From sequence record KP682389: 64,000 nt of DNA; one strand, given 5' to 3'. Below are positions 60,001-63,000 of the stretch, in pieces. Position 1 is the first letter of the stretch, and every line of letters starts with the position of its first letter. The stretch comes from Escherichia phage PA45. The position numbers are program-made.

Positions 60001-63000
60001 AGCGCACCGGATAAGATTCGGTGTTTTGTTGAAAAATACTGTGATAACAAACAGAAAACCCGTCAGTAAGACGGGCTTAGCAAGCTGGGACGGTTACTTT
60101 AATAATTTCAGTGCCTTTACATCCACTTCAACACTGCTCAGGTCTTTATCAATTTCACCCTCAATTCTTACTTTGTCTTTCGGAGAAACATTCTGCCCGG
60201 CCCATATGCTGTCATCGATATCCGTGACAATTGTCCCGCTATTGTCACGAAACTCATAACGTTCATCACCCACTTTTTTAACGATGCTCCCTTCAAGGAT
60301 AACCCATGCATCATCCTTCAGTTCTTTTGCCTGCGCTACTGTTGAACGCTCTGCTTCAGGCCCTTGGAAACCGCCCTGCTGTGCAAAAGCGCCAAAAGAC
60401 ACACCAGAAATAAGTGCTGCAATCAATACCTTTTTCATTCATAGTCCTCTTTCAGAGATGAACATTCAAACAGCATTTTCAGTATGGTAAAGCGCGGGTG
60501 CGTTGAGGATGCCTGACACATCAGAGGTGGCGGGAGATTACTCCCCCGCTTGGTCTCTTACTTCTCAGATTCGTAGTCTACGAAGACAGCGACCTCCGTC
60601 TGACCGGTTCGGATTCGCACCTCGCAGAGGTCTTTCCTCGTTACCAGTGCCGTCACTATGACGGTTAAACAGATGACGATCAGGGCGATTAACATCGCCT
60701 TTTGCTGCTTCATAGCCTGCTTCTCCTTGCCTTTCGGCACGTAAGAGGCTAACCTACATGTGTTCAGCATGGATTGAGCCTCAGATTAATGTTAAGCGTC
60801 TTGCCGGACGCGTAATGTTAACTGGGGCTTTTCTCTATCTGCCGTTGGTGTTCATGCCCGAGGCAGATAGCCTCAAGCACCCGCAGCAATTCTACTTAAC
60901 TCTCCTTTTCCCGCAAACCGTTTTTATCTCCAGCGACAAATCGAATACACAACCAGCACCACCGCCATTACTGTTCCTACATTTGCGAATGCTTCAGGCC
61001 AGGTCATTGATTCACCTTCTGCTCAATATTTTTAAGGTCATTTTCCGCATACAGTATTGCAGTTCTTGCTGCCCGCAACCGTGCTTTGGTGTTCTTTTCT
61101 TCACGCTCGAGGCTGGCAACAGATTCTCGGAGCTGATCGTGTCTGTTATGAAGCTGTCTAATCTCTCTCACCACAGCCTCACCATCGTTCGCACACCGCA
61201 GAACATACTGAAAAGGGTCCACAACACATCCGCACTGCAAGCACAGGATAACGTGATCCTGTTCATGAACCTCAATGGCCCGATGCTTACAGCTCTGTTG
61301 TGTGTAGTTTTTTCTGCCAGTTACTGTAATGTTCAGCAGCTTCTCTTCATCGCGCTTTGGCTGCACCAGTGTGATGATATTATCGCCTTCATTTTCCATC
61401 AGTTCACCTCCTGCGGCGGTTCTGGTAGCGGCATCCAGTGTGACGGTTTCCACGACGCACCAGGAATTATCCACCCATCATTAGCGTCAGGATGCCCCGG
61501 GATGTAAGTCGCCCACTTCATTCGCCAGTCACCTTTCCTGTCAAACTCCACGGCAACAAGAACGGCTGTTTTGGTATCCGGCATTCGCTCACTACAACTT
61601 ATCCAACCATCCGGAGTTACCGGAGAGTTGCCAGACAGCGCATTCTGCAACCGTTCCAGCTTAACGTATTCCTGAACCCTGTTTCCGTCGCACGCCTGAA
61701 GCCATTGCTCAGCCTTTTGCGCATCAGTGTGAAAGGCACAAGTGCGACCGTCATCAAATTGCATTTCGTAGAGGTTAGCAATCTGTTCAAACTGCGTGTG
61801 TGGCAACTTGTAAGTTTGGCTTACGAGTTCGGCTTCCAGTTCTGCTATGCGCTTCTCTGATGCTTCAAGTAACGCCTGCTTATCGCGTAGCGCTTCTTCC
61901 AGTTCAGCAACATGGCATTCACTATCAATAAGGTTGTTCTCTGCTGCTCCCAGCTCAACTCTCAGCTTCCCAACCGTAAGCGCAATCTCCTCGTTCTCCT
62001 GGTCGCGGCGTTTGATGTATTGCTGGTTTCTTTCCCGTTCATCCAGCAGTTCCAGCACGGTAGCCGGGTTAGCCTCTGCTATGAATTCAGCGTTGCATAA
62101 GCCTGAGCATCTGTTTCAACCAGGCAGTTAACATGACATTCTGCAATCACGCCACCGGGTTCTCCTTTCCATTTTTGGCAAACAAAAACTCCTGTTAAAT
62201 TGCCGTGCTGGTTAACAGATGTATGCCCTACGATGTAGCTTCCTTTAGTTGCTTTCTCTGCCTTTTCACGCAGTGCCTGATAGTCAATCTTGCTCATTTT
62301 TCTCTTCACTCCGGTATACAAGGATTACTACGCCCCCTCTGCTAATTGCGCGAGCTGGATCCCCTGGTTCCATGCCGTCAATACCGAAGGCTTCGAAAAA
62401 TGCATCTATTGCCTTTTGGCGTTGCTCCTGCTTACGGCGTTTATTCCATTTTTTCATGAACAACAGTGACAGCCATCGTCCGCTGCAGAACATGATGTAG
62501 AAATAACCAAGGAGCGCTAGGCCGGTGTTCAGGGCTGTATCGATCGTTATCGTGGTGTTGATGTTCACTTCACACCTCTCTGTTTGTTGATAAGTTCAAT
62601 ATCCTGCTGGCAACTGGCGCAAGCTCTGCATCCACGAACAGCCAGGCGTCGCCGCTCATCTATCGGATCGCCACACTCGCAACAATGAGTAGCAGATGGG
62701 GCATTACTATCGGATTTGTATTTTTGCAGGGAGAGATTGCGCTGCAATTCTTCGATTTCAGCGGCGTTGTCGATGATATCTGCCATTTTCCTTTCCTTCA
62801 GGCATGAAAAAAGGAGCCGAAGCTCCTTTGGTTTTAGAATTCGAATTGCCTTGCCCGCAGGCTTTTCAGCATTGGTCTGGCCCGCTGAACTACGAAACTC
62901 GACTGGTCAAGCCGTGCCGCCTCTCTCAGTAGCACATCTCTGTTCTTCGTCACCATGTAGATGGTCTCAAACGCAATGTCATACAGCTTGTTCGTGTATG

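Follow-up and report, generated by a model that had tools for sequence, protein, structure and literature searches.

The 64,000-nucleotide stretch of Escherichia phage PA45 analysed here (sequence record KP682389, hereafter the window) carries on its minus strand the hokW-mokW-sokW type I toxin-antitoxin locus of the Shiga-toxin phages Sp5 and 933W, which is already annotated and has been studied experimentally, together with a downstream gene for an OB-fold protein of the YgiW/BOF family. Judged by sequence comparison, hok/sok and BOF form one portable two-gene unit that moves between prophages, and this is the new point of the analysis. Phage-type BOF practically never occurs without an upstream hok, whereas most hok copies occur without BOF. 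The intrinsic terminator that follows hok in the examined hok-only cassettes is missing from the unit, and a transcript started at the hok promoter probably reads through BOF to the terminator at 60078-60046. Taken together, a hokW-mokW-sokW locus of a 933W/Sp5-type prophage, fused with BOF in a portable block and joined to it by inferred read-through, is very likely the best explanation of the region. The new content is modest: it consists of the fused mobile unit of hok/sok and BOF without a hok terminator, and the rest confirms a known locus.

The identity of the locus follows from nucleotide comparison. Positions 59500-61100 are 100% identical to VT2-Sakai (prophage Sp5 of E. coli O157:H7 Sakai) and 99.9% identical to 933W. 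GenBank record AF125520 (933W) already annotates hokW, mokW, the SokW antisense RNA and L0136, the last as 'similar to YgiW and YdeI'. Takada et al. 2021 (PMC8621323) worked with an identical hokW-sokW sequence, and every primer published in that study maps perfectly onto the window. Publications on hokW-sokW, as represented by the covered parts of PMC8621323, make no mention of the downstream ygiW-like gene or of an absent terminator. A literature search on the locus tags of the hok/BOF locus returned nothing relevant, and a 2026 Pas-sRNA preprint merely cites the hokW paper and adds no information for the locus.

The distributions of the two genes are strikingly asymmetric. Present in 107 phage records, the hok/sok cassette also occurs at about 15,000 sites in 5,425 of the 5,426 E. 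coli genomes. Phage-type BOF occurs in 44 phage records at 99% identity or above, all of them 933W/Sp5-like; among the complete E. coli genomes it is present in 570 of 5,426, mostly as a 97.7% variant, in Shiga toxin-producing E. coli of several serotypes and in a pig isolate. That the module is core chromosome in all strains, the outcome that would have undone its interpretation as cargo in the initial annotation, is ruled out by this count. Of the 5,426 genomes, 550 cover a query laid across the BOF-hok junction and 549 cover BOF itself, and phage-type BOF apart from hok was not found in this set. Diverged BOF proteins, at 92%, 81% and 81% amino acid identity, are each encoded 117-119 nt downstream of hok. 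In the species-representative genomes, which are uninformative on close relatives of the block outside E. coli, the matches listed are all YgiW/YdeI paralogues from other genera, about 50% identical and lacking an adjacent hok.

The proposal in the initial annotation that the toxin gene and the YgiW-family gene form a small module is borne out by the recurrence of the pair as a block in three genomic contexts: the right arm of Sp5, the nin region of other lambdoid prophages and a chromosomal site. At 85-97% identity, the block was recovered by local blastn in loci L008-L014. Homology with the other prophage nin regions covers 60047-60926 on the minus strand (blastn, alignment A1), and the genes there run in the order DUF551, hok, BOF, 90-amino-acid open reading frame (ORF), DUF968 and RusA, all co-oriented with hok. 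The chromosomal copies share 60094-60926, with homology stopping exactly at the BOF stop codon. These copies (L008-L011, E. coli TPA assemblies) lie between a cytochrome-c peroxidase/cytochrome b562 pair and mrp-metG, in a non-prophage setting. About 3 of 5,426 complete genomes carry a variant of the block in the 80-95% identity range.

Phages with hok alone delimit the toxin-antitoxin part of the unit. Evi, HannyBb, PhiR12_3 and PPompW carry hok in the nin/Q region without BOF, with homology to the window confined to the interval between 60486-60488 and 60895-60924. The core cassette common to these phages and to hokD-type loci occupies 60486-60901 (minus strand, blastn boundaries); matches of hokD-type and other phage-type hok genes begin at position 147 of the junction query, which corresponds to window position 60486. 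The hokD (relF) gene of the Qin prophage in K-12 and the hok-only nin cassettes are the closest relatives over this interval, at 86-95% nucleotide identity, and are likewise prophage-borne. Content at the site also varies among related phages. In the related, short-tailed TL-2011c, the end of the LPD gene (to 59577) is joined almost directly to a degraded hok remnant, and 59578-60503 is absent. Together with the presence of BOF in 44 phage records, this variation fits a moron or accessory cargo, and the cargo position suggested in the initial annotation holds up. The unit carries hok and sok promoters and a terminator after BOF; a BOF promoter went unrecognised by an insensitive scan.

The spacer between hok and BOF sets the unit apart from the hok-only cassettes. 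Its 55 nt (60439-60493, minus strand) hold the BOF Shine-Dalgarno sequence AGAGGA (60450-60445), and a terminator scan of the window found no intrinsic terminator between 60494, the end of the fold-back box fbi, and the BOF start. In the hok-only cassettes of Evi, HannyBb and PPompW a hairpin, AACCCGC-TTCG-GCGGGTT, with a T-run directly follows fbi, and the same scan detects it in both of the cassettes scanned, Evi and PPompW, which serve as a positive control. This terminator is absent from every hok+BOF variant read, and a scan of one of them (L038) was also negative. The BOF Shine-Dalgarno sequence (AAGAGGAC) is invariant across the hok+BOF variants, and the sole terminator follows BOF. That terminator (60046-60078, minus strand) consists of a hairpin at 60078-60056, AAGCCCGUC-UUACU-GACGGGUUU, and a U-run, and it is conserved in the nin-region variants. 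The missing hok terminator implies that hok transcription probably runs into BOF: the hok promoter would give rise to a transcript of about 830 nt that carries mok/hok and BOF and ends at 60078-60046. In the predicted fold of an 837-nt RNA (60884-60048), the closure between 5' and 3' parts of the hok mRNA is intact and the BOF portion folds separately. A sigma-70 scan found no promoter for BOF in the window; it also misses the hokW promoter and the experimentally verified sokW promoter there, which makes this negative weak.

An intrinsic terminator just after fbi, the substrate of slow 3' processing, is a hallmark of hok/sok systems that the locus lacks. Its absence is an architectural departure and does not exclude the locus from the hok/sok family, because function has been demonstrated experimentally. 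It is conceivable, and we put it forward only tentatively, that the terminator was replaced by a second cistron, such that the hok mRNA locked by its fold-back doubles as the messenger of BOF and the two genes are inherited, and perhaps regulated, jointly. If so, the activation clock based on 3' trimming must differ here, relying on endonucleolytic cleavage or on read-through from phage early promoters.

The toxin gene, hokW (60558-60713, minus strand), encodes a 51-amino-acid membrane protein, toxic and located in the inner membrane according to PMC8621323. It had been described in the initial annotation as a HokD/RelF-like toxin, and rightly so: the ORF matches Pfam HOK_GEF (PF01848) with E 1.1e-22 and 79.8 bits against a cut-off of 22, and K-12-type hokD genes are its closest chromosomal relatives (88-93% nucleotide identity, with mokC at about 75-78%). 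Against the NCBIfam models of Hok subfamilies, which apply stricter cut-offs, the score stays below threshold (52.6 vs 73). K-12 hokD follows relBE and lacks a mok/sok leader. The hokW locus, in contrast, has a complete leader and no relBE; the ORFs upstream encode a 156-amino-acid protein and an Ead/Ea22+DUF551 protein, in agreement with the initial annotation on the absence of relBE. The 70-amino-acid frame of mokW (60558-60770, minus strand; ORF reading and 933W annotation) overlaps hokW and shares its stop codon. It is open in three translated diverged variants and in alignment A1, with differing first codons.

The hokW mRNA is predicted to have the full RNA anatomy of the plasmid R1 system, comprising mok, tac/fbi closure, ucb- and dcb-like boxes and a Sok target. 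All its elements lie on the minus strand. A putative promoter was read from the sequence at 60889-60917, with -35 TTTGCG (60917-60912), a 17-nt spacer and -10 TAGAAT (60894-60889). The -35 element is weak and the sigma-70 scan makes no call there in the window; in the Evi cassette the scan picks up the same -10 TAGAAT with -35 TTGGCG. The 5' end of the mRNA is placed at about 60882-60884, from the start of the Rfam alignment (60882) and the minimum-energy fold, and carries the tac-like element GCGGGUGCUUGAGG (60871-60884). It is followed by a leader hairpin (60835-60870) that holds a 9-bp inverted repeat, CTATCTGCC/GGCAGATAG, noted previously as part of the 3' fold-back. An inverted-repeat search shows that the repeat is real, with exact arms at 60862-60870 and 60835-60843, and that it belongs to the 5' leader instead, where it is the core of a longer imperfect hairpin of 20 nt (60824-60843/60862-60881). 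The repeat goes beyond chance, since it lies inside the match to Rfam RF01794 and three of eight related cassettes carry a compensatory replacement of AU by GC in the hairpin.

The RF01794 ('sok') match spans 60708-60882 on the minus strand (113.5 bits against a gathering score of 59, E 4.5e-26). The initial annotation had suggested a covariance model as a means of finding a sok-like antisense RNA. A strong match was indeed obtained, on the hok-sense strand and ending on the hok AUG, and it thus identifies the hok leader and not the antisense RNA. That the Rfam 'sok antitoxin' model matches the hok-sense leader instead of the antisense strand is an annotation pitfall. Further downstream, the ucb-like box UUAGCCUCUUAC (60741-60752; inverted-repeat search and reading) is complementary to a dcb-like box (60550-60561), and 7 nt of it are complementary to tac (GAGGCUA). 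The dcb-like box overlaps the hok stop codon, and its 12 nt are 83% complementary to 60741-60752. Predicted minimum-energy folds pair ucb locally and not with dcb. A post-stop hairpin, GCGGGGGAG-UAAU-CUCCCGCC (60528-60549), has GC replaced by AU in a compensatory manner in three of the eight cassettes.

The fbi-like fold-back box CCUCAACGCACCCGC (60494-60508) is predicted to pair with the mRNA 5' end at 60871-60884, with a perfect core of 8 nt and 14-15 bp in the fold. Both the structured leader and the 3' fold-back of the initial annotation are present. The tac/fbi helix is retained in the consensus fold of the 8 cassettes and is invariant except for two G-U-compatible changes; owing to this near-invariance, covariation speaks neither for nor against it. 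Across the 8 cassettes, whose identity ranges from 86% to 97%, six predicted pairs display compensatory changes. The minimum-energy fold of the 405-nt hok RNA has a z-score of -7.48 and pairs the 5' end with the 3' box. When the last 42 nt are removed in silico, the 5' end is released and predicted to form a local hairpin. Just upstream of the hok promoter ends an unannotated hydrophobic ORF of 27 amino acids, MTWPEAFANVGTVMAVVLVVYSICRWR (60924-61007, minus strand), whose ATG overlaps the stop codon of the 156-amino-acid ORF (ATGA). No terminator lies between this small ORF and hok.

The antitoxin RNA, sokW, occupies 60762-60832 on the plus strand (coordinates converted from the misc_RNA annotation of 933W). 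Its 71 nt are predicted to fold into a single-stranded 5' tail over the mok start/AUG followed by a terminator hairpin with UUUU (-29.9 kcal/mol, z -4.95), and the published Northern probe for SokW maps to 60762-60791. The sokW promoter was read at 60727-60755 on the plus strand, with -35 TTGCCT (60727-60732), a 17-nt spacer and -10 TAACCT (60750-60755). The published promoter-less mutagenic primer YO-421 changes exactly these six -10 positions, which confirms the reading. The hok cassette of PPompW_699 (L006) carries a deletion of 21 nt, at about columns 70-90 of alignment A2, that removes the hairpin matching the Sok terminator/target stem, and its antitoxin may consequently be defective or different.

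BOF (60094-60438, minus strand; L0136 in 933W, ECs_1244 in Sakai) starts 119 nt downstream of hok and encodes a protein of 114 amino acids, predicted to be periplasmic. The initial annotation of a secreted YgiW/BOF protein with its own terminator agrees with the family profiles: Pfam BOF PF04076 (E 5.1e-33, 113.7 bits against a cut-off of 25.8), NCBIfam NF033674 (E 4.1e-40, 136.4 bits against 35) and TIGR00156 (110.8 bits against 108.15). The ORF also matches PDB 1NNX (YgiW) with E 3.3e-29. Its first segment (60382-60438, minus strand), read by eye, codes for a Sec signal peptide, MKKVLIAALISGVSFGAFA|QQ, with MKK, a hydrophobic core and AFA|QQ. The domain, signal peptide and size are those of the periplasmic stress-tolerance proteins E. 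coli YgiW (1NNX), Salmonella VisP and YdeI, a family associated with tolerance of peroxide, cadmium and antimicrobial peptides. Phage BOF is about 50% identical to the chromosomal ygiW-like copies matched and makes up a distinct phage-carried clade downstream of hok, whereas chromosomal ygiW adjoins qseBC. The dN/dS values against diverged copies are 0.19-0.25, indicating purifying selection. If the hok transcript does continue through it, BOF would be a stress-tolerance-type cargo protein expressed from the hok platform. The conserved Cys of Hok (KDLCEV) is replaced by Trp in the nin copy of CP024618 (L014 4671-4883) and by Gly in the chromosomal copies read (L008-L011; for example, L008 3842-3997 and L009 2071-2283). 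BOF is intact and under purifying selection where the Hok Cys is lost, which hints that it may outlive an active toxin. The Rfam sR2 snoRNA hit inside BOF, at 20.9 bits with a gathering threshold of 42 (E 0.23), is attributable to chance.

The biology of the toxin-antitoxin pair is known from the work of Takada et al. HokW, 44% identical to R1 Hok, is toxic and arrests growth when induced by arabinose; SokW expressed from its own promoter prevents the arrest, partly via RNase III and Hfq (PMC8621323). A stable, translationally silent hokW mRNA and the unstable SokW RNA coexist in the lysogen, and upon mitomycin C treatment SokW vanishes and HokW is made, in a RecA-dependent manner and about 1 h ahead of endolysin (PMC8621323). 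Deletion of hokW-sokW delays growth arrest by about 40 min, halves phage release and delays lysis, and the phage is still viable (PMC8621323).

The cause of SokW loss was left unexplained in PMC8621323, and gene order points to a plausible one. The early-left genes at the left end of the window and the block at its right end all lie on the minus strand, co-oriented with the hok unit. In Sp5, the pL early-left transcript would continue after excision through int and attP into the hok/BOF block; in other prophages, the flanking replication and nin genes, which pR would transcribe, would play the equivalent part, being co-oriented with the unit. Following repressor cleavage, antiterminated sense transcription might then run across the convergent sokW promoter and bring about the loss of SokW. 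The co-orientation with phage genes in both prophage contexts is what makes such sense read-through plausible, and it would explain the loss of SokW, the RecA dependence and the timing ahead of the late genes.

Several observations weigh against transcription passing from hok into BOF and from early phage genes into hok. Co-transcription of hok and BOF is a deduction from sequence. A weak promoter with a -10 element only (TACCAT, or TATCAT in variants) possibly lies just 3' of fbi, and transcripts may end after fbi by a Rho-dependent or a non-canonical mechanism. With some 430 nt added to its 3' end, the mRNA would fit poorly into the R1 scheme of fbi removal by slow trimming from that end. 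Northern blots revealed two shorter hokW RNA species besides a discrete 'full-length' mRNA, for which the text of PMC8621323 states no sizes, and the supplements of the Sakai translatome have no entry for the locus. The read-through explanation of SokW loss draws on gene order, and a terminator-like hairpin seen by eye near 63625-63650 lies between attP and the block. BOF could, under these circumstances, be an independent lysogenic-conversion moron with a promoter of its own, linked to hok by nothing other than its 119-nt proximity, and we take this to be a serious though less probable alternative. It would accord with the strong Shine-Dalgarno sequence and terminator that BOF possesses, with the -10-like TACCAT/TATCAT, with chromosomal YgiW/YdeI paralogues that function without hok, and with purifying selection that persists where the Hok Cys is replaced (by Trp in L014, by Gly in L008-L011). 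Yet the hok terminator is the exact piece missing in all hok+BOF variants, and the -10-like element has no recognisable -35 partner. Mere proximity would be expected to break sometimes, as happens for hok, but phage-type BOF was not encountered apart from hok in the 5,426 genomes despite moves between at least three contexts.

Other alternatives concern the role and the position of the fused unit. The hokW/sokW pair might serve mainly in prophage retention, through the death of cured cells, or in defence against other phages by abortive infection, with the twofold effect on phage release being secondary or an artefact of the constructs. Its RNA anatomy is the same as that of R1, whose hok/sok lowers T4 plating efficiency by 42%, as cited in PMC8621323. 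By primer mapping, the published deletion allele leaves a kanamycin cassette at 60567-60834, immediately upstream of BOF, and the published FLAG allele removes 60502-60560, and with it dcb, half of fbi and the hairpin after the stop codon; effects of polarity on BOF and of changed RNA locking are consequently uncontrolled in the published phenotypes. The covered parts of PMC8621323 describe no complementation of the prophage hokW-sokW deletion. A retention or defence role is nonetheless doubtful, given that HokW protein is seen only upon RecA-dependent induction and not with ampicillin, that the deletion also lessens growth arrest in a prophage lacking holin and endolysin (PMC8621323), and that an integrated prophage is not lost by segregation like a plasmid. 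The notion that hokW is an inactive relic stems from the PA-series phage records (KP682372 and others), which label it 'RelF inactive antibacterial toxin protein'. Inactivation is reportedly frequent among the chromosomal hok loci of K-12, a finding attributed to Pedersen and Gerdes in 1999. With all regulatory elements intact in hokW, and with growth arrest by HokW and rescue by SokW on record (PMC8621323), the relic idea is ruled out for practical purposes; the 'inactive' label on a peptide that is experimentally toxic is a further annotation pitfall. The initial annotation also saw the module as cargo at the junction of two different phage segments, or as a marker of the prophage end. The late operon does stop before the module, at the end of the gene for a 2,806-amino-acid LPD protein (to 59543), leftward genes of early-left type follow, and content at the site varies between related phages, TL-2011c lacking 59578-60503. 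Complete phage genomes, on the other hand, keep a continuous order to attR, the window end is still prophage DNA, and the leftward block partly duplicates the early-left region of the same phage, which leaves the junction idea as a whole highly improbable. The 'two phages' and 'prophage end' parts of it are refuted, and the variable cargo position stands.

The setting of the module leaves the fused hok/sok and BOF block as part of a single prophage. The whole window is one prophage of Sp5/933W type, with the 933W and VT2-Sakai records collinear to attR; its first 5 kb match Sp5 starting 1,334 nt inside the prophage, and its left end carries excisionase, exonuclease and Ea22-like genes, all on the minus strand. 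The last 700 bases occur in 532 of 5,426 complete E. coli genomes, and the Sakai annotation ends Sp5 at the position equivalent to window 64000. As these bases are still prophage-specific, attR lies at or beyond 64000, at least 3 kb from the module. A second prophage or an att site near 59.6-61.0 kb, where the initial annotation had placed att core sequences, is ruled out by the collinear phage records and the prophage-only window end. In complete phage records hokW is followed by L0139-L0142 and then attR. The module lies between the last late gene (LPD, ending at 59543) and a leftward ORF block at 61004-63463, which encodes the 156-amino-acid protein, without significant family match, an Ea22+DUF551 protein, an antirepressor and a DksA/TraR-type zinc-finger-like protein (933W annotation). 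This block contains a direct repeat of the phage's own early-left region (61840-62299 = 3084-3544; 461 bp, 95% identical), and for this reason it resembled a 'second early-left block'. The initial annotation was thus correct in that the late region ends here and early-left-type genes begin, and mistaken in that these genes are a partial duplicate within the same phage. Once the phage DNA has circularised, the right block follows int on the same strand, an arrangement comparable to the lambda b region.

A second direct repeat links 62565-62697 with 3539-3671 (133 bp, 83%), involving Ea22-like and zinc-finger genes, and recombination between the direct repeats of the right block and the early-left region would delete almost the whole prophage. 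The 2,806-amino-acid ORF (51123-59543, plus strand) is L0134 of 933W, annotated as an LPD38/LPD5 domain-containing polyvalent protein, and closes the plus-strand late genes ahead of the module; its 3' end is 97% identical in TL-2011c. The interval 59578-60046, which is absent from TL-2011c and lies outside the hok+BOF block, contains the 62-amino-acid ORF L0135 (59826-60014, plus strand; no family match). A terminator-like hairpin at 60004-60024 (plus strand) converges on the BOF terminator, and 33 nt (59965-59997) are shared with sequence at the terminus of an Rpn/Transposase_31-family gene in L008-L010. Compared with Sakai Sp5, the window has 2,626 additional nt, located between its left end and the module. 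Three ORFs of 296 amino acids (7522-8412, plus; 24371-25261, minus; 27433-28323, plus), identical in their first 60 residues, are presumably IS629-type transposases. Some 40 nt upstream of the antirepressor-like gene (62834-63463, minus strand) lies a full-length match to the Rfam model sRNA-Xcc1 (RF02221), at 63504-63592 on the minus strand, which scores 69.1 bits where the gathering threshold is 53 (E 1.8e-11). The hairpin seen by eye at about 63625-63650 has a T-run and lies just upstream of this match.

Among known systems, plasmid R1 hok/mok/sok shares with the locus a Hok-family toxin, an overlapping mok, Sok over the mok start and tac/fbi closure, and the ucb/dcb boxes of R1 have candidate counterparts in the locus. 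R1 differs in being plasmid-borne and killing plasmid-free segregants, whereas hokW is prophage-borne with a reported role in phage release; hokW differs from R1 also by the lack of an intrinsic terminator after fbi and by the second cistron, BOF, downstream. The hok-only phage cassettes examined show the reverse arrangement, with a terminator directly after fbi and no BOF. Lambda b-region genes and morons such as bor and lom are likewise variable accessory genes between the tail genes and att with their own terminator. The hok+BOF unit, unlike them, additionally occupies nin regions and a chromosomal site, and comprises a toxin-antitoxin system, not a simple conversion gene.

The presence of a conserved, probably co-transcribed gene directly downstream bears on the published hokW-sokW phenotypes. 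The alleles used lie directly upstream of BOF, which goes unmentioned, and polarity on BOF is a possible confounder. If the hok mRNA does serve as the messenger of BOF, BOF might modulate the envelope damage caused by Hok or contribute to phenotypes attributed to hokW-sokW, among them the increased risk of haemolytic uraemic syndrome that is statistically associated with ygiW_2 and a mokC-like gene together. An Irish case-control and genome-wide association study of 2025 (PMC11950266) found that 'ygiW_2' and the mokC-like 'group_5720' jointly raise the odds of this syndrome (adjusted odds ratio about 5.5), the dependency between the two being left unexplained. The location of hok and BOF 119 nt apart on Stx-type prophages offers a candidate physical explanation of this dependency: by inference, the pair is a candidate for adjacent BOF and hok, most likely marking the phage type rather than interacting. 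The co-orientation of the unit with early phage transcription, in turn, suggests a testable reason for the disappearance of SokW upon prophage induction.

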